The notes beneath the pieces were generated by a model that was not told the DNA's origin, ran no database searches, and worked only from the letters and a program-made list of their open reading frames with translations. From IMG/VR virus record IMGVR_UViG_3300022928_000019, positions 8,884-72,883 of that record: a stretch of DNA of 64,000 nt; one strand, written 5' to 3'. Every line of letters begins with the position of its first letter. The stretch's first letter is position 1. Positions 4,401-46,387 of this stretch are shown piece by piece. The stretch comes from a virus. Both the position numbers and the translations under genes were made by a program.

Positions 4401-7400
4401 TAAGCTTAAGGCAGAGGGCATGTATGGAAGACAGACCTTGAAGCCCACTCGTGTATTCAGGAAGCCAAAGAATGAGCTATTGTTTAGGAGCAGAAATGAC
4501 TCCATCATAACTCCTCCAATAAATATCAAAACAGTTGAGGTGGATGAAGAGGATCCTGCGAAAGGGTTCGATGAGCTTTTAGCTGATGTAGATAAAAGCA
4601 AACTTAGTGAGAGCAAAAGCACTAAGACATTGATAGCCCTAAGGTACTTCTACCCAGGGTCTGATCAGCCAGCTATTCTTTTGAGAAGAGTAGCATCCTC
4701 TAAGGGGGATGTTGTCATTAGGGATATGAAGCGTAAGGGCGGTAAGACTTTAGACCCCCTTACAGATACATCTAGTTATTCCATTAAGATGAATAGCGAT
4801 CAATATTATGATGCGCTAGAGGGTGACGAGAGAATTGAGCCAGTAGCATTATTAGAAGTAACAGAAGAGGTTAATGTAAATACCGACTTTGATACGGAGC
4901 AGGAATTTAACTTAGCACTAGATCCATTCTTGGATAAGTCTAAAGTAAGGCTAGACCCAATGGGTATATTGGAGGGCATCGATACTTCTATCGAGCAGAC
5001 GGATGACCCCGAGGTAGAGGAAAGACTTAGACTCCAAAGGAATAGGATAGAGACCATGGTTCAGGATGAAGATGGTCAATTCAATCCACTGCTAGAAATC
5101 TTTGGGTTTGTTCCTGATAATACAATTTCCTCATTCAAGGAAGAGATCGAAAAGAGGCTTCCGGCAATTAAGGATAAGCAATTAAAAGCAAAAGGTAGGA
5201 AGATACTTAAATCCGATCAACTTAGGATACTTGATGTTACTGAGTTCTTGGGTGGTATTGCTGAAAAGAAAGGTTCTTGGCGAGTAGGAATAAGAGCCTT
5301 GGGTGATAATGGTGAAGAGTATCAGTCTTTAGATAAGGTTATTACCACAGCTCTAAATGAATTCTCAAAGAGAGGGTACAAGCCCCGAGCGGAAAAGGGT
5401 ACAGGCACGGATGCAATGTCTCGGGCAGTAACCTCACTGCTAGATGATGAGAGAGTTAGTGATCAGACTGGAGATAAAGGATTTAGTGACTCGGGTGACA
5501 TCCAGGATGAAAATGATATTGAGGGCAGTCAGCTACAAGATTCTATAGAACAGTCAGAGGCAGATGAGGTCACCTTAAATGATGGCTTGGACTCATACAT
5601 GGGAGATGGTGGCGATGAGCAACCCATGGTTATCAGTGATGTGGAAGAGCCTATCGATCAGATTTACGTGGAAATGGCAGAGAATGCCATCGCTAATCCG
5701 AAGGTCAGGCCTGAGGATAAGGAGCAGATAAAGTTTTCACTTTCGGTGTACAAGAACTCTAATCCTACTGAAAGAGAATCTAAGAGAGAAGAGCTTGTTA
5801 TGCTCCTAGTTGAGGCAATTAATATGGCTAATTCTGAGTCTGTTGGTGAGATTGCAAGTACCCCTGATGTAATAGAGAGGGAGATAGCATCTTCAATAGA
5901 GAAGCCTACATCGCCTCCGCCACTAGCCCAAGAGTTGATCGAGGAGAACTCAGTCTCACTTCAGAAGTTTTTTGGTGGTGCAGTCATGGATGGCGAGCCG
6001 ATACGGCTAGAGGCATATATCAATCGAATGCTCAATACCATAGTGGGTGAGGGTTCTGTTGATTCAGATATCTTAGACATGGCTCAGCAGTTAATGTCCC
6101 ATCCTTATGCCAAAGACCTTAATGTAAAGTTTGAGTCTTGGGACAACTTCAAGAAAGGTGTCAGTTCGGACGGTAGGAATGGTAAGATCACGAGGGCATA
6201 TCTGCGTGGCAACACTATTGTTATGGGGCCATTCTATAAGCTTAAGCTAGATAGTGACTTAACTGCTGATGACCATATAAGGGTCACCTTGCTCGAGGAG
6301 ATTGCCCACAGTGTTTTAGACAAGGCAGTAAATGTTGCTGTTCTCACCAATAGGCTAGGAGAGTTGCCTGCTGATGTCAGGGGAGTCATATCCAAGGAGA
6401 AGGCAGACAAGCTATATAGAGAGACTGAAGAAATCATGTCTTGGCTCAGAACCCAAACGGATGGCAGGTACTACCAAGGGCTACTGAATAAAAAAGAGTT
6501 TTGGGCAAACTTTGCAACTAATCCTGACTTCAGGAAATTCTTAAATCGCCCGATGCCACCTCAGTTAAGGCGTAAGTTTCAGTCTAGATTCGAGAGAGTA
6601 ATAGACTGGCTCTTAGATTTAGCTAGCAAGATTTTCGATGCCGACTTCACTAGACAAGCTTCTACCTTAGATGTTATCAGAAAAAGATACCGTACGGTAT
6701 TGCGTACGGCTGATAAGTTAGCAGCAGCTGATGTTGACATATACGCTACAATGAACAGCGAGAGCAGGGGGAACATCAACTCTGACCTCGGAATAAATTA
6801 CAATATACAAGATGGAAAAACCCAAGATAAAACCTTTTCGTCCCTCCCGAAAATTATTGCCACCACGGAAAACCTCAGCGGAAGAGATGGCAAAGATTCC
6901 TTCTACCGTGCCGCTGTCGATAGCGGATACGAAATCACTAGACAAAATCTTAGGAAAAAGCTCGAAGGACTCCCACAAAAAATAGGCACCGAGCATGGTG
7001 CGTACTTTGATCACGATGCAGGTCGTGCAATCAAGGTAACTAGGATTCCTGAAAGCATGATGTCCTTCGGGCATTTTTACGATGTCGGGAGATACATTAG
7101 GGATAAGCACAATATGAATCTCCTCTTTGGGGATGATATTCAATTTGTTGGTGTTAGCCCTAGGGAAGACGGAGATTATGCGATCATCACATCACAACCT
7201 TTAATACTAGGAAGGGAAGCTACATCTGATGAGATCATAGCAGATTTAGAGGGCAGGGGGTACAAGATAACAATGACCCCAAATTGGGAGGACAATGGGG
7301 CTACCCAGGAGATCAGTGCTATTTCCGAAGATGGAACAATTGAACTATCTGATATTGCTCCCAAGAATGTTTTAGTCGATAACGAAACTGGCGAGCTTGC

Positions 7401-10400
7401 TTACATAGATGTTCATGTTGAAGCTCCTAACGATTTAGCATCGAGGGTTGAGTCAGCAGATACGTTCGATCCTGAAGAGGCAAGTGTAGCCCAAGGTACG
7501 ATCCGCGCGCATATGACCGCACTAATGGATCTCGGTAATGTAATTTCTTCTGCTCTAACTGAGGTGGGGGAAGAGTCCTCAATGTCGGTTGAGAAAATTA
7601 AGGAATATCAGGTCGTAAAAGACGGAAGCACACCCGAGGTTATTGCTAAGGTGCTTGCGGATAAGGCAGCCTCGGTTGATGAAGTTCTAGCTCAATATAG
7701 ACAAGCTCTTCCTGAGCAGTCTCAGGCTACTGCAGGCTTAGATAATATCAACAATCTTGAGTCCATAGCAAATAGAGATACTGCTGCGAGAAACCTAATG
7801 AAGTTGCTAGTAGGCACTAGGGAGAGTGCCTCTGATCTACTAGGTTCCTCACTTAAGAATTATGAGAAATTGAACTCTAAGTTAGAGAGTTCATCAGATG
7901 CAATAGCTAGGCTTACATCCCCTAAGACAATGTTTGATGCAAGTAAAACTCAACGCCAGTTAGCCAAGGCAATGAGGGATTCACTTTATAAGCAGAATGA
8001 CTCGGGTGAAGGTTCGAAGGTTAATTCATTTGAGGCTGCATTAATAGCTGAAGGCAAAGATATAAATCTCACGGACTTTAGGAAACTGAGGGGAATGGAG
8101 ATCGATGAGGGCAAGCTATTTTCCCTGTTAGAGAAGCTGTCAGTCGGTTTTAAGGGGGTAAGGTTCATCGAGCAATTAACAGCCGAGGAAATCTTTGATG
8201 CACTTACCCCCATGAGTAATGCTCATTCTCTCGTCACTAATTCAGATCCAGATACAGAGCTAGACCAAGCAGTAAAAATTGGCATTGCCCTAATCCTTGG
8301 AAGGGATCAGAGGAACTCAGTTCCCCGCAGTGCATTTACAACAAGACTAAGGTTAGCTAAAGGAGAAGTCAGTCATGAGATAGCAGATGCAGTTAGGCTT
8401 ATCAAGGATGCTGCAAATGGTAGACCTGTCAGGGATATCAAGGATAGATCCATGAGGTCTATTATTGAAAATGTTAAAAGCATCAAGGCTGACATTGATG
8501 AATATAAAGCTGACCTTGAGAAAGTTAAGGAGGAGATACGAGTAGGAGAGATACACTTAAAGGTATACGATGAAAGAATAGCTGACCTTGACGAGTATTT
8601 TGAAACCTCTGCCCCAGTAGAACTTAGAGAAGGTGGGCAATACTCTATGCTCGAGATTGATGCCGATGGAAAACTTCAAGAAACATTATTTACATTCCGA
8701 CTAGGAAATGGGGAGAGTTCCGAAGAGGCAAAATATACTGCAGCCAAGGCATCTGAACTTAACAAGATAATGCAGACGGAGTCTTACAAACAAAAGTATG
8801 GGGGGACTCCAATGGATAGGTATTTCAAGCAACTTGTTACTGAGCTAAGAAAGCCTAATTTTGGTATTCAGTATCATACTGCTCACGTAGGGTTTCTCCA
8901 TGCAATGGCTCAGTCCCTACAGGAAAGGCTGTCAAATCTTGGCCCTGCAGGAAAGCTAGCAGCCTCACTTCTAAATACATACAATAGAGACTATAATGCC
9001 GAGGTAGGAGCAATATCCTCACAAGGTAAGAAAGTATCTAAGGCAATCAAGAGGCTTCATGGGGAGATGGCAAGGGAGTCGGGCGAGAATTTAAATCAGT
9101 TCATAAAAGGTTTTGGCTCCAAGATGTTCGACTGGTTCAACGAAAGACCTGACCTACAAGGACAAGAGGAGCAAGCGATCAATAAGGTTTGGTCTGACTT
9201 AAAGAAGGAAGATCCAACAAGGCAGTACACTGAGGAAGGTAAGCGAGCCTTGAGGGCTTACCTAAAGCAATGGGGTATACAGAACGATAACTTCAGGAGA
9301 CTCTATAAGAAGTACGACATAAAGGTTGAGGACGAGAATGTACCTCGTGGTGAACTAGCCCTAGGTGTAGATTCTCCTAACCTATTCAGAGACTTCGTTG
9401 AGCAGGGTGTTTTCACAACCCCACGTAAACTTAATCGCACAAAAATATTTCGAGTCGTATCACTTCTAGATAGTAAGTTCGCAGAGAAGGATTACGTAGA
9501 TGAGGAAAGTGATGGTAATTTCTTCGGGAAAGCTCTTGCAAGCATGCAAGAGGCTAGGGCTTCAGGAGTAGACATGGAGGAAAGCTTTCAACAGATCTTC
9601 GGTAAGTCAGTCAGCCCTGAGTTGTCTAGTCTGTTCTTCAGTCCGATTTTCAATGGTAAGTCTGCACACAATATCCCATTTGTATTACAATCGCAGGACA
9701 ACGAGGGCCGGAAGAGCAAGCGCATATTACTTCCCGAAGAACTCCAAAGAGCATGGAGAAATGCAGATGGAAACAATGAGGGTATACGAGTTGCAAATGC
9801 GATCCTTTCTTTATCCAAGATCATTCCTGGTTCTAATGAGGACACCCTATTTAATCTTGTTGGTCAGATGAAACATAGGGCAAGTGCCTTGATAAAAGTT
9901 GAAAGAGAATCTAGGCAGGAGGATACAGCAATCGATAATAATGCTGACCTAATGAGGATGCTTAAGGGTTCTGACTTTCATCATTCGATTCATGGTCGAG
10001 CATTGTACAATGTTTTGCCTGGTGAGTTCTTTGAGTACGAGATGTATGATGAGACATCTTCCTCTCAGCACTTATCAAAAATAATGATGACTGCTCACTT
10101 TGGTCGCAAGGGTGAGAAGCTTGCCGACAACTTCAAGGCAATCAAGGAGCAGTATGTGGCATCGAAGGATGCGTATGCAGATTATGCACAGGCAGCAGGC
10201 GTATCACTTAGGGGAGGAAGACCTCCATCTAGGAATATTTTCGGGTATGCTATTAAGGTTAGGAAAATAAAAGCCGAGATGGCAAACAGAGGTAAGGATC
10301 CGAATACATACTCAGACCTAGAGACTAAAGCTAAAGCTTTTTATGAGGCTGAAAACTCTATAGCTGCAACGAGTGCTGCATTCACATCAAGGAGTTCCAA

Positions 10401-12351
10401 CAATGCAGATCTTTCTATGGGGCTTGATGCACTTAGGGCATTAGCATTCGGATTGGTTAACACCATGAAGGGTGCATGGACATCTATTATGTCTATGCCT
10501 GATATCGTAAAGAAGATGGGTCTTAATCCTACTGCATTTAGGACTCTTGGGGGAGCAGTTAAGAACTTACCTCAAGAGATAGCAGGGTCATTCTTGGAGT
10601 CATTTGGGATAGAGATGATTAGACCTGATAAGTACAACGAAGAACTTCGTGATATGTATGGACGCGAGCAAGGCATGCTAGGGTTCGATGAGTTTACTAC
10701 CGAGATAGGTAAGGAAGGTTCACTTGGGGCAGGGCAAGGGACTTTTAGGAAAATCGTTAATGTAGTACAGGGTCTCTCTCAAGCAGGTGGAAGTATGAGA
10801 TCCAAGACTAGCGTTAACTTTATTCCAGGATCTGTACTAACGCCATTCACTGCCCCATTTAGTTATCTTGCTCAGGCAGTTAATAAATCCATTTCCTTAT
10901 CCATGGCAGAGACAATAGAAAGGTTTGTCCTTAGGGCTGTTGAGGCAATGGAAACCAAGGGCATAACGATAGACAATAATACCTTTGAGGTATCTGCCAA
11001 AGACCTTGGATACGAAGATTCCAAGCTAGACTCCTGGGTCTTCGGTAGTGTGGACATGGTGGAGAAGCTGAACCAAAGACTGACTGCTGAGGGTATGTCA
11101 TTTGCTCAGCTTGCACAAGACTACAGGAGAAGAAAGGAACTAGATCCTAATGCTAAGGTTCTGAGTGTAGATGCAGTTAGGGCTTCCCAGAATATTGCTA
11201 TGTCTGAGGTGACCTATGATACTATGGCCGGTAAGCCATCGGCAGCACTATCGGGAGTTGGTCAATTTTTCTCTCCTCTCCTTAGCTGGTCGGCATCTTC
11301 CTATAGTAAGGGTCTTGATCAGATGAGAAACAAGGAGGGTCGTCTTGCTATGAGGGAGAGTGTTAGGTATATGCTCACTGCCTCGGCATGGCTCATGCCT
11401 GTTGGTATTGCCTTCACTATGTTTATGGATTGGTGGGATGAGGAAGTACTTGGTAAGCCGTCATCTCTTAGAAAGGTTCCACCAATAGCTATGGTTCCTG
11501 GAATAGGTACATTTATGGCAATGACTGACCCAAGGTATGATGTTGCTGCTATGCTGGAAAGGGCAGCTCGAGCAAATAATATACTTGGTCTCGGGCAAGA
11601 GTTTATAACTCCTATGTTAGTCGGGCAACTTGACCCATCTTCCTTGGGTGCAAAGTTCGATCCTACCCGAAGAGTGCTTGGTATCTCAACTGTTATGAAT
11701 GCCTACGCTGTGGCAACTAACTACTTCAACGCTATAAGGACAGGAGGAAAAGAAGAAATAGTACCAGACTATGCTACAGTTGTCAGACCATTAATGTATC
11801 TAATGGGACTCAATGCAGTAATACAAAATACCCAAGCAGCAACAAACTTAACAAGCATAGAGGATATAGAGCCAACAGGCTTCATGACCAACGAAAGGCA
11901 AGTAGCTGACATCACAGGAATGAGGAACTCATTTAGGGTATTCGCAAAAGCCATAGGCATGGAGATGAGAAGAGGAGGAATAATGCAATTCTCGGCTACT
12001 GCCATGGGAAATGCTCTCAAGAGAATGGAAAGGGCAGCCTATGCAAACGATAGGCAAGCATTTAAAGATGCCTATAGGAGGGCTATCGAGCTATCTCAAT
12101 CTGATGATAAACGAAAGGATGTATCCGATAAATTCAAGAAAAGACATATTCGCAATGGTGTCACTAGGTACTCAATGAGTGATGCAGACATACAAGCTAT
12201 ACTATCCGTGATGGATCCTGACCAAAGGTCAAAAATCCTCACTGCAATGAGGAATCACGATTTTTATCTTAAAGCTATTGGAGGCACACCATCCAAGCCA
12301 AGAAAGGATGTAGGTCAGTATAAAGAGGCGCTTAGAAAGCTTGCGTTATGA
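1453..12351 (+). CDS. Giant polyvalent internal virion/DNA-ejection protein with zincin-like and Ser/Thr kinase-like domains
   Basis: 3632 aa. GEGVTEGLQE motif typical of phage core proteins; LLEEIAH...KEFWANFATNPDF (zincin/MPTase-like, ~6280-6540); GTEH..AIKVT..QPLILG..DIAPKNV..YIDV (kinase-like, ~6980-7420); hydrophobic C-terminal region. Confidence 0.75.
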   Translation: MASSIIAKYREHLASQGKDSTQTTDKDLALELYSALTEQKKDFEKFAENRGDPEFAQLVRDAYEENKTFKGSAVDSIPAEYYNRKTGLQRGLSVGAGAVGMDDTARDLMRDANRNERKANKYQKNIFNDIQMIDDPIDGLKYVTQAITSTAVSVVPDMALSLITRGAGGKIQKSLEKGGKLKDVRKKLEKTMGEGYGKNIGTVAGAFGTSAVENTGHVYGDLYEYTKLDPSDEKYLSPSEARALSMVGGGASATLDSVLPVWLVGKLSKSIGADAAQKEVTKMFNGMPEGMVLLAKGTAGEGVTEGLQEVVQMLTVKYHTDEEWSPQDWNRLINASVMGAIGGGAVTGGTAAIGRMLEAPETRPWDPKLEEVDTKKEREEIRNRNALRRYADLEVGTIVSPAGSDKLARVVSKNEEDSTVVVEFRDGLTQRMDPTKLNVKQDKKRVIKEEDLESFSDQKLEELKIYSPKLTSAIEKEQERRNVEVEKDNTLKRLDTAIEVSEKGNQIIAVDSSSKERIHSATFTEEDGLLVLDNESKDSENDQRGDQARELIHKQLKAKAKKLGMPYKIGDVIEYPLSASEINQIDSKADLLVEYGRLRARYNLLGRREPETEERLIARMQELGMISLDRNNRPILGEVELKKGSNSRLLTTNPEVASVLSGSIFTDLEANLVGYEDTLNASQINDKFILKEAKAMLGDMAETIDGLNHSDVARIAEGATELFKKHYLDEDGGWKAGKTRKDIEDEEAERQEIALMRKQESKDRFDLIKPQVGNFVQIAKGQAPQKITSVDEENFTVRTTEGGDNDISARSIIRQAEERPLERNGEFVTELNSGKVRKKVVVTGSDTNGEYRGRKSLTVTFEKNGDIISVTDSENNYYSDAKGLSVDDDEFQSTLASITLTKVEQKDPPTPKPQKVADNIFRIGNTIEGSVLQVNGSKKIGKHELVPVLTDNTGRVSGIKVGDEELTFDDPVPASEWVETARTKLKAEGMYGRQTLKPTRVFRKPKNELLFRSRNDSIITPPINIKTVEVDEEDPAKGFDELLADVDKSKLSESKSTKTLIALRYFYPGSDQPAILLRRVASSKGDVVIRDMKRKGGKTLDPLTDTSSYSIKMNSDQYYDALEGDERIEPVALLEVTEEVNVNTDFDTEQEFNLALDPFLDKSKVRLDPMGILEGIDTSIEQTDDPEVEERLRLQRNRIETMVQDEDGQFNPLLEIFGFVPDNTISSFKEEIEKRLPAIKDKQLKAKGRKILKSDQLRILDVTEFLGGIAEKKGSWRVGIRALGDNGEEYQSLDKVITTALNEFSKRGYKPRAEKGTGTDAMSRAVTSLLDDERVSDQTGDKGFSDSGDIQDENDIEGSQLQDSIEQSEADEVTLNDGLDSYMGDGGDEQPMVISDVEEPIDQIYVEMAENAIANPKVRPEDKEQIKFSLSVYKNSNPTERESKREELVMLLVEAINMANSESVGEIASTPDVIEREIASSIEKPTSPPPLAQELIEENSVSLQKFFGGAVMDGEPIRLEAYINRMLNTIVGEGSVDSDILDMAQQLMSHPYAKDLNVKFESWDNFKKGVSSDGRNGKITRAYLRGNTIVMGPFYKLKLDSDLTADDHIRVTLLEEIAHSVLDKAVNVAVLTNRLGELPADVRGVISKEKADKLYRETEEIMSWLRTQTDGRYYQGLLNKKEFWANFATNPDFRKFLNRPMPPQLRRKFQSRFERVIDWLLDLASKIFDADFTRQASTLDVIRKRYRTVLRTADKLAAADVDIYATMNSESRGNINSDLGINYNIQDGKTQDKTFSSLPKIIATTENLSGRDGKDSFYRAAVDSGYEITRQNLRKKLEGLPQKIGTEHGAYFDHDAGRAIKVTRIPESMMSFGHFYDVGRYIRDKHNMNLLFGDDIQFVGVSPREDGDYAIITSQPLILGREATSDEIIADLEGRGYKITMTPNWEDNGATQEISAISEDGTIELSDIAPKNVLVDNETGELAYIDVHVEAPNDLASRVESADTFDPEEASVAQGTIRAHMTALMDLGNVISSALTEVGEESSMSVEKIKEYQVVKDGSTPEVIAKVLADKAASVDEVLAQYRQALPEQSQATAGLDNINNLESIANRDTAARNLMKLLVGTRESASDLLGSSLKNYEKLNSKLESSSDAIARLTSPKTMFDASKTQRQLAKAMRDSLYKQNDSGEGSKVNSFEAALIAEGKDINLTDFRKLRGMEIDEGKLFSLLEKLSVGFKGVRFIEQLTAEEIFDALTPMSNAHSLVTNSDPDTELDQAVKIGIALILGRDQRNSVPRSAFTTRLRLAKGEVSHEIADAVRLIKDAANGRPVRDIKDRSMRSIIENVKSIKADIDEYKADLEKVKEEIRVGEIHLKVYDERIADLDEYFETSAPVELREGGQYSMLEIDADGKLQETLFTFRLGNGESSEEAKYTAAKASELNKIMQTESYKQKYGGTPMDRYFKQLVTELRKPNFGIQYHTAHVGFLHAMAQSLQERLSNLGPAGKLAASLLNTYNRDYNAEVGAISSQGKKVSKAIKRLHGEMARESGENLNQFIKGFGSKMFDWFNERPDLQGQEEQAINKVWSDLKKEDPTRQYTEEGKRALRAYLKQWGIQNDNFRRLYKKYDIKVEDENVPRGELALGVDSPNLFRDFVEQGVFTTPRKLNRTKIFRVVSLLDSKFAEKDYVDEESDGNFFGKALASMQEARASGVDMEESFQQIFGKSVSPELSSLFFSPIFNGKSAHNIPFVLQSQDNEGRKSKRILLPEELQRAWRNADGNNEGIRVANAILSLSKIIPGSNEDTLFNLVGQMKHRASALIKVERESRQEDTAIDNNADLMRMLKGSDFHHSIHGRALYNVLPGEFFEYEMYDETSSSQHLSKIMMTAHFGRKGEKLADNFKAIKEQYVASKDAYADYAQAAGVSLRGGRPPSRNIFGYAIKVRKIKAEMANRGKDPNTYSDLETKAKAFYEAENSIAATSAAFTSRSSNNADLSMGLDALRALAFGLVNTMKGAWTSIMSMPDIVKKMGLNPTAFRTLGGAVKNLPQEIAGSFLESFGIEMIRPDKYNEELRDMYGREQGMLGFDEFTTEIGKEGSLGAGQGTFRKIVNVVQGLSQAGGSMRSKTSVNFIPGSVLTPFTAPFSYLAQAVNKSISLSMAETIERFVLRAVEAMETKGITIDNNTFEVSAKDLGYEDSKLDSWVFGSVDMVEKLNQRLTAEGMSFAQLAQDYRRRKELDPNAKVLSVDAVRASQNIAMSEVTYDTMAGKPSAALSGVGQFFSPLLSWSASSYSKGLDQMRNKEGRLAMRESVRYMLTASAWLMPVGIAFTMFMDWWDEEVLGKPSSLRKVPPIAMVPGIGTFMAMTDPRYDVAAMLERAARANNILGLGQEFITPMLVGQLDPSSLGAKFDPTRRVLGISTVMNAYAVATNYFNAIRTGGKEEIVPDYATVVRPLMYLMGLNAVIQNTQAATNLTSIEDIEPTGFMTNERQVADITGMRNSFRVFAKAIGMEMRRGGIMQFSATAMGNALKRMERAAYANDRQAFKDAYRRAIELSQSDDKRKDVSDKFKKRHIRNGVTRYSMSDADIQAILSVMDPDQRSKILTAMRNHDFYLKAIGGTPSKPRKDVGQYKEALRKLAL

Positions 12352-14970: not shown

Positions 14971-16011
14971 TCACTTATGGACATAGCCTTCGGTTGTCTT
15001 GGTATTTGAGTGACCGACTGCCTTACCAATATCCTCTAGGCTTAATCCTGCTTTATCTAATCTAGTAATACAAGAGTGCCTAAGGCAGTGAAACGACCTG
15101 CCATATATGTCTAATCTCTCGCACAACCTTTTGAAGTAAACACTAGGCTTAGATCTAGTCTTTGGGTTGGTTATAATATCATGCCATTCAGGAAAGCAGT
15201 ATACCTTATCTTCAACATCTATCTCACTGAGTACTTGTTGTATTATGCCCGAGCCAAAGTACTGACTAGTAGTATCAATTGATACCAACTTGTCTCGCTT
15301 TATCGTCCATACCACCATCTTCTTTCTATTCCTAATGCTGTCCCACTCAAGGGATGCAATGTCTGCTAGCCTAAGACCTGTCCAATAGGATATGGCAGTA
15401 GCCTGTCTAAAGAAATATGGTGCATTCTTGATTATTTTATCTACCTCTTTCTTGAGGAATATATCTCTTTCCTTGGGGGTCTTTTGTTTGTGGGTAAGCT
15501 TGGAATTGTCTATCTTAAGAAACATAAGTGGGTTAGTCATTACATACATCTTTATCTGAGCAAAGTTCCATAGCTGACTCATGGTTGATTTACGTAATGC
15601 CCTCATGCTTAATGAGGTTCCATCATTCTTATTCAAATAGTCGTAGATATCTTTTTCAGATATACTAGCAATTGGCTTATCAATACATTTGTAAGCCTTG
15701 CCGAACTGCTCGTATATCGATGTCATCGTGTAGATGGAATTCTGTGATGTTGCACTAAACTCCATGTGCTTCTTGTATTCCTCGACAACATCCCAGAACT
15801 TCATGGACTTACTGCCTACGATCTTTGTTATAACATCAGCAGATAAAACGCCTAGCTTACCAGCATCCTCAAGCTCTGATATCCTAAGATCTTTCACGAG
15901 CTTGTTTGCTTCTTTGCGATCCCTTGTCCTCAGGTGGGTGGATCTCAATGTGCCATTGATATCCTTGTACTTGACTGAGTAGTCACCGCTCTTGTTTTTC
16001 ACTATTTTCAT
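14971..16011 (-). CDS. int: Tyrosine recombinase/integrase 1
   Basis: TGLRLADI (R), FHCLRHS (HxxR), VGHS, GY catalytic residues; AGGAG RBS. Confidence 0.92.
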   Translation of the reverse strand: MKIVKNKSGDYSVKYKDINGTLRSTHLRTRDRKEANKLVKDLRISELEDAGKLGVLSADVITKIVGSKSMKFWDVVEEYKKHMEFSATSQNSIYTMTSIYEQFGKAYKCIDKPIASISEKDIYDYLNKNDGTSLSMRALRKSTMSQLWNFAQIKMYVMTNPLMFLKIDNSKLTHKQKTPKERDIFLKKEVDKIIKNAPYFFRQATAISYWTGLRLADIASLEWDSIRNRKKMVVWTIKRDKLVSIDTTSQYFGSGIIQQVLSEIDVEDKVYCFPEWHDIITNPKTRSKPSVYFKRLCERLDIYGRSFHCLRHSCITRLDKAGLSLEDIGKAVGHSNTKTTEGYVHK

Positions 16012-16035: not shown

Positions 16036-18285
16036 TTACACATGAGCAAGCTCTAAACTCTTAGCTTGCTTAGCGAGTTTGTCTCGCAGTTCCATCCACT
16101 CGAGTTCCATCTCTATCTCACTCTTAGTCTCAATGAGATCCTCATCAAAACTAAGGAAGTGGTCAGCCATTATATCATCAACACTACCATCTTGGTAATC
16201 CACTGGCACATACTCGCCTAGTATGCACATGGTGGCAGCGTCTCGCTTGTCTGCTAGCTTGTCAAACATGGACTCCTCAATTGTATCTTTGCTAAGAAGC
16301 ACAGTAATATCTGCATCCCTCTTAGAGTTTACTCGGTACACCCTACCTAGGGCTTGATGGAATGACCCATAGCTCCATTCGAATGATCCGATTATCATAT
16401 TGGGGCAATCAGGAAAGCTATGTCCAACTGCACACTTAGCACCCATGAGCAGTACTTGTGTATCATGCCTCCTGAATTGATTAGCCTCCCGAGCATGGTC
16501 TGATGCATTTGAGTCTATCCTAGAGAACGAAACATCTGCGTCCTCTAGTCTGTTGGACAGTTCATCTGTCTGACCTATGCATGATGATATATGAATGACC
16601 TGCTCACCTTGTGATATGTACTTATGTACAAGCTCGAGCGTGGTGATAAGCTTGGGATTGAAGTTAGATGACACCACTCCTTCATTAAATGATCTACCTG
16701 CAGGATCTGCACATATACCACGTAGCCTCTGCAACTGAACTCCATAACATGTCTTTGGATCCTTGTATGGTATATTCTTAATATCTAGGTTGTGGGCATA
16801 TAGTTTCTTTTGGGCATATCCCAATGGCACTCTGAGTGTCTTTACATTACACTTAACTACATCAGGGTTACATTGCTCCTTGGATATGAAAGCAACGAGT
16901 GACTTAAGGACTTTGAGTAATCTCTGAGCCTGACTGATAATTGGACTAGTCTTAATACATGAGGATCCATTTCCCCTGATAGCCTCCTCGGTGTAGTCTC
17001 TCTCACGTGTAAGGAATGTGCTACAAAATGTAGCCTCATCCTCTAGTGCATATGGCCACCTAGGATTACTCTTCTTGCCATGAAACCAATTCGGTACTGC
17101 GAGCCATCCTAGTATAGGGAATATGTTCGGTAGGATATTAGGTATGGGTGTAGCAGTTAAGGCATACCTATACTTAGGTTGAAGTCTAATGATTGCCCGA
17201 GTTATCGCTGAGTCTAGTGACTGCATGATGTGAGCCTCATCGAGCATAACACAATCAAAGTGGTGTCCTGCTATGCTAGATAGACTAGGCTTCAGCACAC
17301 AAGTGAATCCATTGTGAGTTTGCCCGATGCCACAATGATATTCGTTATCTACCGATGGAGGGTTATCGGGATCCCATGGTGCATTGTAGCCAAGGTCTCG
17401 CATCTTTGACCTAAGCAATCTCTCACGATCCTGTGCTGCCCATGATCTAGGTATAGTTTCTATACCACCATTGAGGAAGAATGCAGTCGGGTAGGTTATA
17501 TAAACACCTGTCGGCAGTGTGCCATCACTACGAAGATGTTTGTAATAGTCATCAGCAGAGAAGATTGTACGCACTTTTGTGTCGGGTGAGAACTTAGCCA
17601 TCTCTGCGATCCATTGAGCGGGGTCATACTTCTTCAGCCTACCATCGGAACTTTTGACAGTACCCTTGGGTGCTACCAAGAGAGTACGCCTAGCATTCTT
17701 TAGGGAGTTCAATGCGATTGCCATGCATGTCTTACCTGTACCTACATCTCCACACACTAGTGCCTGATCAACACATGCCACTCGAGCAATGTAATCAAGC
17801 TGACCAGGATAGAAGGTAAAGTCATTTATTTCTTCTAGTACTCTGCATTTATCCTTAATCCGATTGAATGCCTTGGGTCTAAGTTCAGCAACAGTCTTAA
17901 CCTCGGGCATCTCAAAGAAGTCCCACATCTGAATAGATGTAAGTTCGTAATCTCCAATAGGATTATCCCGAAAAACGAACTGCCTCTTTCTGTCATCAGT
18001 GAATGCATATCCGGCATCAACGCCCGATCTCTCGATGTCATGATCTACCACATAGGTTCGACCACTCTTCTCGGTGTGCATCTTCTTCTTGGACACTGGT
18101 CTAGTGTATGAATACTTGAGTCTCTTAAAGGTGTAATCTTTACCTGCAGTTACGCGAGGTAACAATGTCTTGGTCTTAGAGCTAGGTGTTTGCTTAGCAG
18201 TCAAGACCTTCAACTCATCCACCATCCCGACCAACTCATATGGGGTCAGAGGGAGTAGGGGAGGAGAGGTATACTTATACTTCAT
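16036..18285 (-). CDS. SNF2-family helicase/ATPase
   Basis: GDVGTGKT Walker A, LDEAH, LTATP, QALGRVYR motif VI. Confidence 0.88.
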   Translation of the reverse strand: MKYKYTSPPLLPLTPYELVGMVDELKVLTAKQTPSSKTKTLLPRVTAGKDYTFKRLKYSYTRPVSKKKMHTEKSGRTYVVDHDIERSGVDAGYAFTDDRKRQFVFRDNPIGDYELTSIQMWDFFEMPEVKTVAELRPKAFNRIKDKCRVLEEINDFTFYPGQLDYIARVACVDQALVCGDVGTGKTCMAIALNSLKNARRTLLVAPKGTVKSSDGRLKKYDPAQWIAEMAKFSPDTKVRTIFSADDYYKHLRSDGTLPTGVYITYPTAFFLNGGIETIPRSWAAQDRERLLRSKMRDLGYNAPWDPDNPPSVDNEYHCGIGQTHNGFTCVLKPSLSSIAGHHFDCVMLDEAHIMQSLDSAITRAIIRLQPKYRYALTATPIPNILPNIFPILGWLAVPNWFHGKKSNPRWPYALEDEATFCSTFLTRERDYTEEAIRGNGSSCIKTSPIISQAQRLLKVLKSLVAFISKEQCNPDVVKCNVKTLRVPLGYAQKKLYAHNLDIKNIPYKDPKTCYGVQLQRLRGICADPAGRSFNEGVVSSNFNPKLITTLELVHKYISQGEQVIHISSCIGQTDELSNRLEDADVSFSRIDSNASDHAREANQFRRHDTQVLLMGAKCAVGHSFPDCPNMIIGSFEWSYGSFHQALGRVYRVNSKRDADITVLLSKDTIEESMFDKLADKRDAATMCILGEYVPVDYQDGSVDDIMADHFLSFDEDLIETKSEIEMELEWMELRDKLAKQAKSLELAHV

Positions 18286-19166
18286 GCTGCCTCCTTATGT
18301 TTCTTTACTTTGTATATGATCTTAGGATACCGACCTTGGGCGTCAGGTATCGGTGGGATAAGAATATCTTGCCCCTGTTTGTTTACGAAGTAGTCGCTAT
18401 GCAAGGTACGCAAGTGACCGACTCTGCCATTTTTAAGCGGACTAGATTTCTTCTGTCCATTTTTTTCTTGGTATTCCCTAATAACTTTAGGCAAGTAGAC
18501 CACGCGATAGAGTGATTGCTTTGAGTCTATCTTGTACTTCTTCTTGATCTGCTTCATTACCTTCTTGTTGCTCCGATCAATTCTACTTGGAGCAAAGTAT
18601 GGTATAGCCGAGTAGTTGATTACCTTGAGTGCCATAAGCACAGTCTCCATTACTTTAATGGCATTATCATCATAGCCTGCGAACTCTATGAACTCTGAGA
18701 TCTTCTTTCTGAGTTCACCCTCGCCACACTCACTCGGTAGGTTGCCTCGGATATGCCCGGATGGATGCTTGATTGTGTATATGATTACATCATCAAACCA
18801 TACAGGTATTCCTGTTGCATCTGGCCCCCACTGCATTGACAGCTTGCAGAGTAATTCCTTTGCTGCTTCATCCTCCAATTTGCATGCATATTCCCAAGCA
18901 TGTTGAATTAAGTTTGCCTGGTGTCCCTTGCTAATAACTATCTCATGGTATTCCTTATCCTCGAACTTAATAGTCAAACTTTCGCTAGGCCACTTTGACT
19001 TAGAAAAGTTATTTGTAACATGGGTTGCTTGCATGGCATCTGTCACGCTTTTATCTACGAGCATAGTTTGCCCATAGTGGTTATTCCATACTTCATTGAT
19101 AATACCTACTGCAGTGGTTGAATCATCATACTCTGCACCTTCACTTCCGAATATTCTCTCAGTCAT
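18282..19166 (-). CDS. Hypothetical phage protein
   Basis: 294 aa, coupled to the helicase; C-terminal RVGHLR motif. Confidence 0.6.
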   Translation of the reverse strand: MTERIFGSEGAEYDDSTTAVGIINEVWNNHYGQTMLVDKSVTDAMQATHVTNNFSKSKWPSESLTIKFEDKEYHEIVISKGHQANLIQHAWEYACKLEDEAAKELLCKLSMQWGPDATGIPVWFDDVIIYTIKHPSGHIRGNLPSECGEGELRKKISEFIEFAGYDDNAIKVMETVLMALKVINYSAIPYFAPSRIDRSNKKVMKQIKKKYKIDSKQSLYRVVYLPKVIREYQEKNGQKKSSPLKNGRVGHLRTLHSDYFVNKQGQDILIPPIPDAQGRYPKIIYKVKKHKEAA

Positions 19167-19202
19167 CTCTCATCCTTTCTTTGTTGGTTGTTTAAAATAA
19201 AT

Positions 19203-19369
19203 TCAGTCGGGGGCAGGTTTTTGGTCATCACGTGGATTTGTTGCCCACGCTCGCATTATCCCTTGCGACCTTGCCCGAAGGCTTCTCCACCTTAGATGCA
19301 CTGAATATAGATGCACCTAAGGCTCAAAATGGAGGCATTAAAGATCGCTCCCTAAGAACCCCCGACTGA
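19203..19369 (-). ncRNA. Candidate multi-stem structured ncRNA
   Basis: 11-bp closing stem (19203-19213/19359-19369) enclosing four hairpins, including a cUUCGg tetraloop; G-U pairs work only on the minus strand. Confidence 0.65.
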
Positions 19370-19372
19370 TAT

Positions 19373-19394
19373 GTCACCTATGATACTAGGTTAC
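19373..19394 (-). promoter_or_regulatory. 22-bp junction motif copy
   Basis: Minus strand GTAACCTA-GTATCA-TAGGTGAC, 3 nt before the ncRNA stem; contains the stop of the 19386 ORF. Confidence 0.7.
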
Positions 19395-19634
19395 TTTCTT
19401 GTGAAGAGCGTAACCCATGCAATTCTTATTCGAGTCCCACACTAGAAACATTTGCCCCTGCTGTAGTGCGACAGTCGTCAGAGGTATTAACTCCTGAGGA
19501 AGATGTAGACTATTAAACCTTAGTGCTATGTCCTCGGCTAAATCACCATCTTGCTTGACGGACTCTGTTTCAAACACCTCATATGCTTTATCAATATTAA
19601 ACGGAGGTGGTTTAAATTTTTCTAGCCTACTCAT
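19386..19634 (-). CDS. Hypothetical protein
   Basis: 82-aa coupled ORF. Confidence 0.55.
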   Translation of the reverse strand: MSRLEKFKPPPFNIDKAYEVFETESVKQDGDLAEDIALRFNSLHLPQELIPLTTVALQQGQMFLVWDSNKNCMGYALHKKVT

Positions 19635-20128
19635 GATATAGCCTTATTAAGTATCCTTGCCAACTCATCCTTTACTATAAAGCGTACACGATCTTCTGTC
19701 AGATTATTGTTAAGAAGAGTAGCAATGGCATTGAGCCTAGGGTCAGGTCTCGGGCTATTGCGCTGCCTTGGAGGCTGCGGTGGGGTATCCTCATCCTCAT
19801 CCTCATCCTCGTCCTCTTCCTCGTCCTCTTCCTCCCAAACTGCCTCGATTGAGTCACGACTTATGTTTGGTTCTGCTAGTTTTGCAATGGGTACTAGCAT
19901 CTTGTAGATCTTTTGCTTGGTTGAGTGGATCTCGTCATCCCTCATGTCCTCATCCTCAGCCCAGTCATCACCGAAGAAGCTCTTTAATAGTTCTCCCTCG
20001 TCTAATACCACTGACTGAAGTGAGTCACAGTCGGCATCAACGTTTTCTTGAAGCCATTGGTTAACCGCATCCCTAGCATTAGGGTTAGCGCGTTGTAGTT
20101 TTAATATTTCTTTGTAGTAGTCACTCAT
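19631..20128 (-). CDS. Hypothetical acidic protein
   Basis: 165 aa with an E/D tract. Confidence 0.6.
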   Translation of the reverse strand: MSDYYKEILKLQRANPNARDAVNQWLQENVDADCDSLQSVVLDEGELLKSFFGDDWAEDEDMRDDEIHSTKQKIYKMLVPIAKLAEPNISRDSIEAVWEEEDEEEDEDEDEDEDTPPQPPRQRNSPRPDPRLNAIATLLNNNLTEDRVRFIVKDELARILNKAIS

Positions 20129-20131
20129 GAT

Positions 20132-20153
20132 GTAATACAGGTATATAGGTTAC
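20132..20153 (-). promoter_or_regulatory. 22-bp junction motif copy
   Basis: Minus strand GTAACCTA-TATACC-TGTATTAC; contains the methyltransferase TAA; ATG 3 nt later. Confidence 0.7.
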
Positions 20154-21622
20154 ATTATAAAATGTGCAAACAAAATTCTGTATGCACGTTCAGCTTGGGT
20201 TGGCACAATGCCATTACCCAAAAGTCTTAGTCTTGGAACTCGCTGAGCCATGACTTCGGGAGAAGCGTAGTATTCTTTGGTAGTCCCATCAGGGATTCTA
20301 CCCATGTAGGGTTGAGCTTCCCCGACTGTGAAAGAAGAGCTAGGTCTCTGCCCAAGCATTTCTGATTGGATTCCACTGATGTCCTCGCTCCCTCCACATG
20401 ATCCGATGCTTGAGGGGTTCCCCATGTGCTGGCTACCTTCCGCCCCAATGTCTCCTGGGATCCCTCGGGTACTGTCCCCATGGTATCCTTCCAATCCCTC
20501 GACATTGGAGTCGGCCACTTCTGCATTGTCTCCACTGCATCTCTCAGCTTGGGAGTCCACTTCTCCCCCTTGGCATTCGTCCGAATGAATCGTCCGTTCT
20601 CTAGGGTCACATTCGGTGCTAGTCCTCCCTCGGCATCGACTGTCCTCGGTGTGGGATACATTATCTCGGGGTTCATCTCGGGGTTCACTACATCCTCCCT
20701 CAGATTCTTGCACCCTCCCTTCTTCTTGTTCCGAGCTAGTGCTTCCCCTGTCTTCGGTGGGAGTACATCCATCGTGTTGGGAGTTGCCCAACTCTTCAGT
20801 GCCACTGCTGACAGACTCGGACTCTGCCTGTTCTTCTCCGACTCGGGAGTTCCGTCCGTCTTCCCTGTCCTCGGGGTAGGCCATGATGACTCTTGGTTCT
20901 TCCCATCCGTACTGAGCTTCCCCTGGACGTGAAGGCCATGTACCTGCTCGCCAAGGTTGCTTTTCCCCCGATCCGTCATGCAAGCTCGGGAGTCTTGCTC
21001 TTTCGGAGTCCCCCAACCTTCGTTCAATTTCAGTGTCAGGGTTTGTGTTACGGAAGAGCATGAAGACTCGCTTACGTTGGTGAGGCGCGCCTTCTTCACT
21101 CGCACTGACCAATGTGAACGCACCCTCGTAACCAATTTTTTCCATGTATCCCATGACATATTTGAGAACGCTTGTGTCCTGCTCGCCACCGAACTTACAA
21201 CTGATGATCCCTTCGACATTTTCGAGGGCAACCCAGTTTGGTCGGCAAAGCTGAACTCCGTCTGCAATGAAGGGGAACAAGTGCCTTGGGTCTTCAGTTC
21301 CCTTCCGAATGCCTGACGATGAGAAGGGTTGGCAAGGGAATCCCGCAGATAAGATGTCCACGCATCCACGGAACTTTCCGTATGGGAACTCTTTAACATC
21401 CGTAAAGATAGGTGCTTCAGAAAGTTCACCCTCTTCAATCTTCGCAACCAAGTTGGCGCAAGCGTATCCTTCCCGTTCCACGTATGCGATTTCTCGCAAG
21501 TTTGGGAATAGTCCTCGAAGTCCTCTCCCCATCCCTTCATATCCACTGCACATAGAGAGGTGAGTGACGACGTTCTCGGTAAGTATACCCTGTAATTGTT
21601 CTTCTTCATAATCTAGATTCAT
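20150..21622 (-). CDS. C5 cytosine DNA methyltransferase, alpha-like chain
   Basis: Motif I-like SMCSGYEG, motif IV AGFPCQPFS, VI ENV, VIII HQRKRVF, X RLRLLGNGIVP; likely start ATG 21622. Confidence 0.9.
   Translation of the reverse strand: MNLDYEEEQLQGILTENVVTHLSMCSGYEGMGRGLRGLFPNLREIAYVEREGYACANLVAKIEEGELSEAPIFTDVKEFPYGKFRGCVDILSAGFPCQPFSSSGIRKGTEDPRHLFPFIADGVQLCRPNWVALENVEGIISCKFGGEQDTSVLKYVMGYMEKIGYEGAFTLVSASEEGAPHQRKRVFMLFRNTNPDTEIERRLGDSERARLPSLHDGSGEKQPWRAGTWPSRPGEAQYGWEEPRVIMAYPEDREDGRNSRVGEEQAESESVSSGTEELGNSQHDGCTPTEDRGSTSSEQEEGRVQESEGGCSEPRDEPRDNVSHTEDSRCRGRTSTECDPRERTIHSDECQGGEVDSQAERCSGDNAEVADSNVEGLEGYHGDSTRGIPGDIGAEGSQHMGNPSSIGSCGGSEDISGIQSEMLGQRPSSSFTVGEAQPYMGRIPDGTTKEYYASPEVMAQRVPRLRLLGNGIVPTQAERAYRILFAHFIM
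20227..21609 (-). CDS. Nested alternative-frame ORF: WPTP-repeat, motif IX-bearing methyltransferase beta-like chain
   Basis: 460 stop-free codons on the same strand; WGTP/WPTP/WATP/YPTP repeats and LNPTWVESLMGLPKNTT. Confidence 0.65.
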   Translation of the reverse strand: MKKNNYRVYLPRTSSLTSLCAVDMKGWGEDFEDYSQTCEKSHTWNGKDTLAPTWLRRLKRVNFLKHLSLRMLKSSHTESSVDAWTSYLRDSLANPSHRQAFGRELKTQGTCSPSLQTEFSFADQTGLPSKMSKGSSVVSSVASRTQAFSNMSWDTWKKLVTRVRSHWSVRVKKARLTNVSESSCSSVTQTLTLKLNEGWGTPKEQDSRACMTDRGKSNLGEQVHGLHVQGKLSTDGKNQESSWPTPRTGKTDGTPESEKNRQSPSLSAVALKSWATPNTMDVLPPKTGEALARNKKKGGCKNLREDVVNPEMNPEIMYPTPRTVDAEGGLAPNVTLENGRFIRTNAKGEKWTPKLRDAVETMQKWPTPMSRDWKDTMGTVPEGSQETLGRKVASTWGTPQASDHVEGARTSVESNQKCLGRDLALLSQSGKLNPTWVESLMGLPKNTTLLPKSWLSEFQD

Positions 21623-21623
21623 T

Positions 21624-21645
21624 GTAATATAAAAATATAGGTAAC
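21624..21645 (-). promoter_or_regulatory. 22-bp junction motif copy
   Basis: Minus strand GTTACCTA-TATTTT-TATATTAC, 1 nt before ATG 21622. Confidence 0.65.
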
Positions 21646-21715
21646 ATTTGTTAGCGATAGAGCGACATTGCCATAAGGACAACCCCCACCCAAAATAGAA
21701 TAATTAGTAGGTCAT

Positions 21716-45741: not shown

Positions 45742-46387
45742 TACCGAGGAGTTAGCTACTGCGATGCGACGTCATGACGGCAACTATGCCGATGCAGCTA
45801 AAGAGTTAGGCATGACTGAGGGGAATATGCGAGAGCGTGTTCGTAAGGATCCAAGGGTTAAAAGTATTTGGCAAGTAGCCGGGAACCAAGGACACGAGCC
45901 TTCCGATGTTGAACTTATGGTCAGGAAAGACCCTCCACCTGCGCCAGACCACAAAGAGTTTCTAGGAGCATTAAAGGAAAATGGTAAGGAAGAGTTCATG
46001 GGTGAACTCGAGACAATGCTTAGGAACCCTGAGAACATTGAGAAGTTAAAAGTATTTCAGAACCTGAAGGGTGGCATCGGGCAACTAATGTCTAATGCCT
46101 TGGATGTAACTCAGAAAATAGCCATTCGACAGAATATGGCTTTATTTGAAGTAGGGGAAAAGCTACGAGACGATATTTCTAGTGGGATATTGGATCCCGA
46201 GGAGGAGATATTAAGGACTAAGCTATTTCTGCAGACGACCGAGCAACAAGGTAAATTTTACGACAGGTTACTTCATGGTTTAGACTTGATGATTAAAATG
46301 TCAGAAAGGGATAAAGTTAAAGAAAAGAAAAAGCCTGGATTCAGACCTTTGAAGGAGATGCAAAGTGCCGAGGCTAAAGAAGATTGA
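45719..46387 (+). CDS. Putative terminase small subunit
   Basis: N-terminal HTH (GNYADAAKELG); overlaps the large terminase gene. Confidence 0.6.
   Translation: MPRRKKYSTEELATAMRRHDGNYADAAKELGMTEGNMRERVRKDPRVKSIWQVAGNQGHEPSDVELMVRKDPPPAPDHKEFLGALKENGKEEFMGELETMLRNPENIEKLKVFQNLKGGIGQLMSNALDVTQKIAIRQNMALFEVGEKLRDDISSGILDPEEEILRTKLFLQTTEQQGKFYDRLLHGLDLMIKMSERDKVKEKKKPGFRPLKEMQSAEAKED

Follow-up and report, generated by a model that had tools for sequence, protein, structure and literature searches.

The present study analyzes a structured RNA encoded by an uncultured phage and the genes among which it lies. The DNA examined, referred to throughout as the window, is a stretch of 64,000 nucleotides (nt) comprising positions 8,884 to 72,883 of the IMG/VR virus record IMGVR_UViG_3300022928_000019, and the RNA occupies positions 19203-19369 on its minus strand. 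The genes around it form a row on the same strand that reads, 5′ to 3′, a C-5 cytosine DNA methyltransferase (20150-21682; PF00145, 1e-27), an open reading frame (ORF) of 165 amino acids (aa), a second ORF of 82 aa, the RNA, a 294-aa ORF here called P0001, a SNF2-family helicase (16036-18285; PF00176, 5.4e-13; Helicase_C, 3.7e-07; phrog_62) and a tyrosine integrase (14971-16011; PF00589, 1.2e-18), which is the last gene of the unit. The RNA sits in the 219-nt gap between the 82-aa ORF (19386-19634), which belongs to no family and whose stop codon lies 16 nt before the RNA, and P0001 (18282-19166). An RNA filling an intergenic gap in a minus-strand row of genes is what the original prediction, made from the letters of the window alone, had described. 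The phage record is 72.9 kb long and 96% complete, and it holds a single copy of the RNA.

A family of structured RNAs and its carriers

Positions 19203-19369 of the minus strand encode a real, strand-specific and strongly selected member of a structured RNA family. Folded alone, this 167-nt long form reaches a minimum free energy of -71.7 kcal/mol on the minus strand compared with -49.9 ± 4.3 kcal/mol for 200 dinucleotide shuffles (z -5.12), none of which folded as well, and the plus strand gives a weaker fold (z -3.94). The same structure forms autonomously when 270 nt of context are included, with the Shine-Dalgarno (SD) region of the next gene staying outside the fold. The minus-strand sequence runs from UCAGUCGGGGG to CCCCCGACUGA, two ends that are perfectly complementary over 11 bp. 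A covariance model of the family, R1, matches positions 19203-19368 of the window with 146.3 bits (E 7e-30), in agreement with the limits originally drawn for the element.

The family was gathered through the neighboring protein as well as through the RNA. P0001 has 10 relatives in the protein collection; a close-relative search of the viral contigs with the 294-aa protein gave no match, and a profile search found four viral loci encoding a homologue and none in the genome contigs. Three of these four viral loci, two of them identical in the region, have a recognisable copy of the RNA just upstream. A degenerate pattern of the conserved 3′ block matched 5 and 7 viral stretches, 18 metagenome stretches and one genome stretch. 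Removal of duplicates left 19 distinct sequences, namely 15 long forms (140-176 nt) and 4 short forms (approximately 90-125 nt, the minimal one being approximately 95 nt). R1, which was built from the 15 long forms, scores 20 copies in 22 sources, with the 16 long-form copies at 119-157 bits and the short forms at 66-77 bits, and there is one copy per phage record. Judged from exact-word scans the family looks small; core half-site words used alone on the viral contigs found 16 new loci, none of which matches the model, so that these are chance matches.

The carriers of the RNA are a lineage of uncultured temperate phages whose contig and run labels suggest marine and salt-marsh samples as their source. 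Positions 18000-21000 of the window gave no blastn match among cultured phages, and tblastn with the integrase and with a 512-aa ORF (46365-47903) returned only distant matches over partial lengths, at no more than about 31% identity, those of the 512-aa ORF falling in regions annotated as terminase large subunit. No cultured phage is close at the DNA level, through the integrase or through the 512-aa ORF; SD sites, sigma-70-type promoters and rho-independent terminators in the related contigs point to bacteria. Among 185,579 species genomes the core pattern has a single locus, whose contig shows the phage gene order, and R1 matches one of 76 genomes in the order of that metagenome-assembled genome (MAG), which is the same genome again.

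The core of the RNA is a three-way junction of the closing helix P1, a variable 5′ arm beginning with P2, and a 3′ arm ending in the hairpin P6. The two strands of P1, UCAGUCGGGGG (19359-19369) and CCCCCGACUGA (19203-19213), show double changes at six of the seven modelled pairs. P1 is followed by the junction strand J1/2, UUCUUAGGGA (19349-19358), with a conserved UUC...GA in which U12, U13 and C14 are invariant or nearly so; a mini-hairpin of 2-5 bp, seen there by eye and without covariation, is possible. P2 pairs GCGAUCU (19342-19348) with AGGUCGC (19265-19271) and has compensatory changes at all seven pairs. In the short forms this arm is no more than a plain hairpin; in the long forms it branches out into P3, P4 and P5. 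P3 (CUCCA/UGGAG, 19285-19334) covaries at four of four modelled pairs and encloses P4, which in the window is a 12-bp hairpin with two G-U pairs, varies in length and sequence elsewhere, is much reduced in one long form (L026) and is absent from the short forms. P5 (GCC-UUCG-GGC, 19273-19282; GYC-UUCG-GRC across the family) has invariant outer pairs and a middle pair that is C-G in nine sequences and U-A in six.

The 3′ arm consists of a 3-bp helix, a large conserved internal loop and P6. Its two core strands, AAGGGAUAAUGCGAG (19250-19264) and UGAUGACCAAAAACCUG (19214-19230), are at least 90% conserved, the former in all 20 aligned matches, and the AGG of the first pairs with the CCU of the second in a helix that is invariant, so that covariation there is uninformative; searched as a word alone, UGAUGACCAAAAACCUG finds chance matches only. 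Between them lies P6 (CGUGGG-CAACAAA-UCCACG, 19231-19249), with double changes at four pairs and an invariant G-U pair at each end (G152-U172 and G158-U166 in the numbering of alignment A5), and the two pairs adjoining it never vary. The blocks conserved at 90% or more in all 20 aligned matches are AAGGGAUAAUGCGAG, GGGC...AAAUC and UGAUGACCAA-AACCUG, the core words include GGGAUAAUG and UGAUGACC, and altogether approximately 40 nt of junction and internal loop are nearly invariant. P1, the plain P2 hairpin and the entire 3′ arm are retained in the short forms, and folding single sequences of one short-form and one long-form contig (L020 and L030) gives the same core.

Two alignments bear on this structure. 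RNAalifold applied to a plain MAFFT alignment returned 33 pairs, 20 of them with compensatory double changes. In a model-fitted alignment of the 19 distinct sequences 95% of cells are standard pairs and double changes occur at 22 of the 33 pairs; this alignment leans towards the model, and the MAFFT-based result agrees with it. The covariation score is 0.496, compared with 0.18 ± 0.014 in 500 shuffles, none of which reaches it, and with no more than 0.13 when the partners are slid by 1-3 columns. Folding against dinucleotide shuffles and covariation among homologues were among the checks that the original prediction had proposed for itself, and both came out in its favor. Comparative data bear out four of its five stems, the 11-bp closing stem, CUCCA/UGGAG, GCC-UUCG-GGC and CGUGG/CCACG, and the 12-bp hairpin that it drew within CUCCA/UGGAG is present in the window. 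The fifth, UCGCA/UGCGA, has to be given up: the two words are complementary in the window but not conserved as a pair in the homologues, where UCGCA belongs to the 3′ strand of the covarying P2 and UGCGA is part of the invariant loop.

Patterns of conservation are consistent with selection on the RNA rather than on a protein. The 51 core columns retain 84-98% identity to the window in every homologue and the whole RNA 34-62%, while the neighboring integrases have drifted to 33-41% identity with that of the window in phages whose RNA lies beside a ThiF-like or a DpdA gene. Four G-U pairs (U12-G188, G150-U175, G152-U172 and G158-U166, alignment A5 numbering applying to the last two) are kept in 18 or 19 of the 19 sequences, and because each would be a C-A mismatch on the other strand, the functional strand is the gene-sense, minus one. 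Alternatively, the element could encode a small protein on one strand or the other, such as that of the 45-aa plus-strand ORF at 19232-19369, and one frame per strand is indeed free of stops across the core in all homologues, over stretches of 41-55 aa. Starts and stops are not conserved, L010 and L025 lack the sole sense-strand ATG within the core, several homologues have stops immediately beside the 17 conserved codons, the 5′ half varies in length by amounts other than multiples of three, and the substitutions are paired and preserve helices. We therefore give a coding role practically no credence and rejected the ORF as a candidate.

None of the known RNA classes examined accounts for the element. 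Rfam 15 (4227 models) gave no match at gathering thresholds in the 64-kb window; the best sub-threshold match on the RNA, with E values up to 10 admitted, was the archaeal C/D-box RNA sR36 at 19.6 bits against a threshold of 55 (E 0.019), and Rfam models searched at the RNA in eight homologue loci with E up to 1 found nothing. ARAGORN found no tRNA or tmRNA in the window or in eight homologue loci, and no Rfam ribozyme model matched the RNA even with E up to 10, so that the description of a multi-branched noncoding RNA that is not a tRNA, a tmRNA or a known ribozyme stands. Several resemblances were followed and dropped. A retron msr-msd would have a closing inverted repeat, which is present, but none of the eight neighboring ORFs contains a reverse transcriptase domain, and the genes downstream of the homologues (integrase, ThiF-like gene, helicase or 294-aa ORF) likewise include no reverse transcriptase. 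A box C/D RNA or kink-turn is suggested by the conserved RUGAUGA, but the CUGA at the 3′ end occurs only in the window and is absent from the homologues, and P6 in its covarying register has no room for a 3-nt bulge; tandem G-A pairs may adjoin P6. The TPP riboswitch, 5S rRNA loop E, ykkC and the hammerhead were considered as look-alikes and put aside, as no model match supports any of them. No integrase-linked phage RNA of this kind is described in the literature searched. A search for relevant terms in the main text of PMC10690425, a large survey of structured RNAs in viruses, returned no such RNA, and the supplementary list of that paper, approximately 10,000 candidate motifs from the same virus collection, may include it. 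Conserved structured phage RNAs are a known kind of object, and we rate the element as a new family among them, one whose consistent tie to integrase genes is unusual.

Gene neighborhood and the link to the integrase

Gene layouts, derived from our own ORF calling and BLASTP clustering, fall into three kinds among the long forms. In the first, that of the window and of L006, L010 and L026, the order is methyltransferase, two small ORFs, RNA, P0001, SNF2 helicase, integrase; L025 and L033 belong here as loci that are cut off, and homologues of the 82-aa ORF lie upstream of the RNA in L006, L010, L026 and L033. In the second (L007 and L018, with L017 cut off) a Prok-E2_D protein precedes the RNA, and a ThiF/E1-like protein, the SNF2 helicase and the integrase follow it. 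In the third, represented by seven distinct sequences, DpdA (PF23859, 3.4e-25 in L030) precedes the RNA and the integrase follows directly. Between the upstream stop codon and the RNA lie 16-50 nt, and in the long forms a further 15-45 nt separate the RNA from the next ORF. An integrase on the same strand lies downstream in 13 of the 13 informative long-form sequences, directly in seven and after two genes in six; the remaining two, L017 and L025, end too early to judge. The integrase is the only constant downstream partner of the long-form RNA, and a short form, L023, has an SF2 helicase downstream. Searched across four whole records (two approximately 100%, one 96% and one 81% complete) and six partial loci, no protein family tracks the RNA in all contexts.

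These layouts bear on the original suggestion of a small RNA, a protein decoy or a cis-regulatory leader of a helicase-integrase operon. The integrase part of it has held in all 13 sequences. An obligatory tie to the 294-aa gene and the helicase has not, because in seven phages the RNA abuts the integrase, in two a ThiF-like gene takes the place of the 294-aa gene, and one relative, G003 (L004; 81% complete), retains helicase, integrase and a P0001 homologue and lacks the RNA even in a search with the filters off. The order in G003, between 1304 and 7108, is helicase, P0001 homologue, two small ORFs, integrase; by eye, a possible 60-aa ORF fills most of the 230-nt gap before the integrase. As between small RNA, decoy and cis leader, the present data leave the three unseparated.

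The seven DpdA-type phages share further features around the RNA. P1 is extended to approximately 20 bp with bulges (L030 included), and directly after the RNA stands a conserved hairpin of 8-11 bp holding the SD sequence of the integrase, UGUUACAC-loop-GUGUAACA at L030:4498-4521, found likewise in L021, L019, L027, L028 and L022, before a GTG or ATG start. Repeats of the kind GTTACAC, TTGACAC and GTGTAAC flank the RNA in these phages, and GTTACA-type repeats also precede the integrase of G003. Repeats and SD hairpin may be operator sites, arm-type sites or an element of translational control. Reading TTGACAC downstream and TATCAT upstream as promoter boxes was rejected, since they are the two strands of the extended P1.

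A position immediately upstream of an integrase, in the same orientation, in seven distinct phages raises the question of a site that works at the level of DNA. In classic attP layouts the 3′ part of an RNA gene is carried immediately upstream of the integrase, and the conserved stretch could in principle be attP or a part of it, for example a phage-borne copy of a host RNA gene, or some other recombination or replication site, recognised as a duplex or as folded single-stranded DNA; the motifs flanking the RNA in those seven phages would suit such a site. This is very unlikely. Compensatory changes keep five helices paired, the invariant G-U pairs are C-A mismatches on the other strand, the RNA stands 3.2 kb from the integrase in six phages, and the GTTACA-type motifs before the G003 integrase occur with no RNA and are thus independent of it. 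An attP carrying part of a host RNA gene finds no support, since no host copy turned up in the genomes searched, the sole locus among the 185,579 species genomes being on a phage-like contig and the only match among the 76 genomes of the MAG's order being that same genome.

From the variation among the genes next to the RNA, the position resembles one at which DNA-modification or anti-defence modules are swapped. Accessory cassettes just 5′ of the RNA are exchanged, with the C5 methyltransferase two ORFs upstream in some phages and DpdA, of the 7-deazaguanine DNA transglycosylase family, in others, and a third cassette in L007, the pair of Prok-E2_D and ThiF/E1-like proteins, lies on both sides of it. 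Genes upstream of DpdA were considered as preQ0-synthesis genes, which their sequences did not bear out. P0001 matches no Pfam or PHROG family; the best match of its AlphaFold model (pLDDT 71) is the anti-CRISPR protein AcrVA2 (7ci1/7ci2), a weak one (Foldseek probability 0.84, E 0.035; VIA Z 7.3 over 177 residues, with the next at 5.6), and its C-terminal 55 residues are invariant, basic and predicted to be disordered.

Some further observations concern the sequence directly 5′ of the RNA. The 19 nt before it (19370-19388, minus strand) overlap the stop codon of the upstream ORF. The word made up of their first 13 nt, TAGTATCATAGGT, recurs once, at 11206-11224 on the minus strand, antisense within a giant ORF; at up to three mismatches it has two matches in the window compared with 0.03 expected, and it may be what the original prediction placed 3 nt before the RNA and called a junction motif, a term undefined there. 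The giant ORF itself (3632 aa, 1453-12351, plus strand) has homologues in every related phage record examined.

Transcription and candidate functions

No conserved promoter belongs to the RNA: promoter-like sites occur in five of 16 loci, at differing positions, and in the window none is predicted beside the RNA, the nearest promoter-like site being at 19702-19674, before the 82-aa ORF. It is because of this lack of a conserved promoter of its own that the RNA is most probably made within a polycistronic early or lysogeny transcript. Public sequence runs are consistent with that. Eleven of the 24 listed runs contain at least half of the stretch's sampled words, with six rows recorded as RNA, and exact pieces of 151-194 nt over the RNA (19196-19346, 19213-19406 and 19263-19413) were found in three of four metatranscriptome runs, at a depth of 2-4 over the RNA and with other pieces scattered on neighboring genes; these runs were chosen with the same stretch, DNA carry-over is possible, ends, strand and level are unreadable, and gaps are meaningless. 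Two of the pieces run past the 5′ end of the RNA and reach into the upstream ORF, consistent with co-transcription, to which they lend weak support. At 19787-19834, inside the 165-aa ORF and of low complexity by eye, unrelated metatranscriptome contigs pile up with loose ends to a depth of up to 34, an artefact.

Sites at which transcription might end differ between the forms. P1 with a U-rich tail was considered as a terminator and rejected, since a terminator scan finds none and the tail is not conserved. Two short forms, L024 and L032, have a strong intrinsic terminator within approximately 10 nt after the RNA, and in a third, L020, a U-rich tail after the RNA is followed by a perfect TTGACA-17-TATAAT promoter, as if the RNA ended the unit. 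Two of the four short-form contigs also carry a manA RNA (RF01745; gathering score 55.2 bits), at L020:1615-1828 on the plus strand (82.9 bits) and at L032:9144-9355 on the minus strand (87.6 bits), the former approximately 135 nt downstream of the short form and behind that promoter.

The reading we prefer, tentatively, is that the RNA is a cis-acting, factor-binding gate on the polycistronic transcript that sets the expression of the distal lysogeny genes ending in the integrase. It is preferred because the positional tie to the integrase is absolute in the informative long forms, because the long forms have no transcription signals of their own, because an SD-sequestering hairpin adjoins the RNA in the DpdA-type layout, and because in two short forms a terminator lies directly behind the RNA, as is usual for a read-through switch. 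Under this reading a conserved partner, be it a small ligand, the RNA polymerase in the act of transcription or some other protein of the host, would dock on the invariant junction and internal loop; its binding would gate the distal genes, whose last member in the long forms is always the tyrosine integrase; and this gating would tune the integration side of the choice between lysis and lysogeny. Candidate routes of output are read-through of a terminator in the short forms, translation of the integrase behind its SD hairpin in the DpdA-type phages, and processing of the mRNA. As in riboswitch aptamers, covarying stems surround conserved unpaired junction nucleotides; as to an expression platform, the SD sequence in the window is free and no platform is seen, and the adjoining elements are the terminator in L024 and L032 and the SD hairpin in the DpdA-type phages.

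Several observations weigh against a gate in cis. The genes directly downstream are heterogeneous (294-aa ORF, ThiF-like gene, integrase, SF2 helicase), the RNA of the window folds alone with the SD sequence of the next gene taking no part, and neither an alternative pairing nor an expression platform came to light. Between 13 and 32 kb the window has no more terminator-like sites than expected by chance (15 compared with 12.5 ± 3.2), which leaves control by read-through without an obvious target in the window. Duplexes predicted by RNAduplex between the RNA and the next 120 nt at 13 loci gave z values from -1.8 to +2.5, no signal, and the long duplexes were artefactual. The tail and promoter after the L020 short form read as the end of a unit, and G003, with its integrase and no RNA, makes the RNA dispensable in at least one relative. 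The function proposed is, finally, inferred.

A more specific proposal is that the RNA is a sensor of a new class, in which a pocket at the three-way junction binds a small molecule or the elongating polymerase and so decides the expression of the distal lysogeny genes, the integrase above all. We regard this version as doubtful; if it were true, an entire lineage of marine temperate phages would make the choice between lysis and lysogeny depend directly on a signal sensed by RNA. A bolder and very improbable variant would have the tyrosine integrase itself use the RNA as a cofactor.

The main rival to a cis-acting gate, possible and in our judgement somewhat less probable, is a stable RNA acting in trans, as a noncoding RNA or as the scaffold of a ribonucleoprotein (RNP), cut from the operon transcript or ending it. 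The long P1 would protect such an RNA and the invariant loop would bind or titrate a conserved factor of host or phage; such a molecule might serve as a decoy within an anti-defence or accessory island, or be of the immunity type exemplified by P4 CI and P1 c4. The autonomous fold, the lack of a visible expression platform and the differing genes directly downstream all suit this explanation, as do the accessory distribution seen in G003 and the place of the short forms at the 3′ end of a unit, before the terminators of L024 and L032 or before the tail and consensus promoter of L020. The presence of manA RNAs on L020 and L032 fits it also, and the neighbors, a C5 methyltransferase, DpdA, E1/E2-like proteins and a protein of weak AcrVA2-like fold, are DNA-modification or candidate anti-defence genes. 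Extreme conservation of the core across divergent phages fits a conserved binding partner. Yet the long forms have neither promoter nor terminator of their own, antisense targets in the window for the two conserved single-stranded blocks are not above chance, no protein family co-occurs with the RNA in every context, and the strict position upstream of the integrase, 13 of 13, would be left unexplained.

It could also be that the RNA is an intercistronic element of processing or stability, such as a site for RNase III or RNase E or a barrier to 3′ decay, a self-cleaving ribozyme of a new kind being included here, which would uncouple the decay of the upstream segment of the mRNA from that of the segment nearer the integrase; retroregulation by lambda sib and the RNase III sites of T7 are comparable. 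In all long forms the RNA lies between cistrons, P1 is long (11 bp in the window and approximately 20 bp with bulges in DpdA-type phages), the fold is compact, and the RNA marks the border between the variable upstream cassettes and the conserved helicase and integrase genes. A barrier or RNase site would, however, have no need of a three-way junction with some 40 invariant unpaired nucleotides, and no known ribozyme family matches, so that we consider this explanation unlikely.

Comparison with known systems

With no Rfam match, a core that stays conserved while the integrase drifts and a positional tie to that integrase, the RNA is a clearly delimited candidate for a new regulatory RNA or RNP that would act at the lysogeny switch of uncultured marine phages. 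To our knowledge, few structured RNAs of phages combine strong covariation with unpaired nucleotides that are invariant by the dozen. At approximately 95 nt, the minimal short form is small enough for direct biochemistry, and the alignment and model could be deposited as a new family even if the RNA were a plain stability element.

The put RNAs consist of two hairpins of approximately 70 nt near early promoters, and the EAR RNA of Bacillus eps operons is an autonomous intercistronic antitermination RNA that needs no expression platform. The put RNA of HK022 (PMC9378689) is a cis-acting RNA of processive antitermination, and both it and EAR, which belong to phages and operons, do without an expression platform and act on the transcribing polymerase. 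Like put and EAR, the phage RNA is an autonomous structured domain in a long operon, and in L024 and L032 a terminator stands directly after it. Unlike them, it gives no Rfam 15 match at E up to 10, a comparison limited in that Rfam may hold no put model. It differs from put further in being a three-way junction of 95-175 nt far down the operon, and in that the downstream terminators in the window are not above chance.

Small immunity RNAs and the retroregulator of lambda are further points of comparison. P4 CI and P1/P7 c4 are formed within their own transcript in the region of lysogeny control and released by processing, and they are antisense RNAs of 70-80 nt with complementary targets nearby. 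The phage RNA differs from them in that it has no complementary target above chance and no match in Rfam, which presumably includes a c4 model. Lambda sib is an RNA structure near int that controls Int synthesis according to the transcript carrying it; it stands downstream of int as a simple RNase III hairpin, unlike the present RNA, which lies upstream, is branched and conserves its unpaired positions.

The manA RNA shares most with the element in the manner of its discovery and in its general form: both were found by comparative analysis, largely in phage and marine metagenome sequences, both have complex junctions with conserved unpaired nucleotides, both lie upstream of genes on the same strand, and they share two of the short-form contigs. 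The new RNA is unlike manA in that the manA model does not match it and in that its constant partner is an integrase and not a metabolic gene. Those phage RNAs that have been solved, put, c4 and the CI immunity RNA, each revealed a new form of transcription or lysogeny control.

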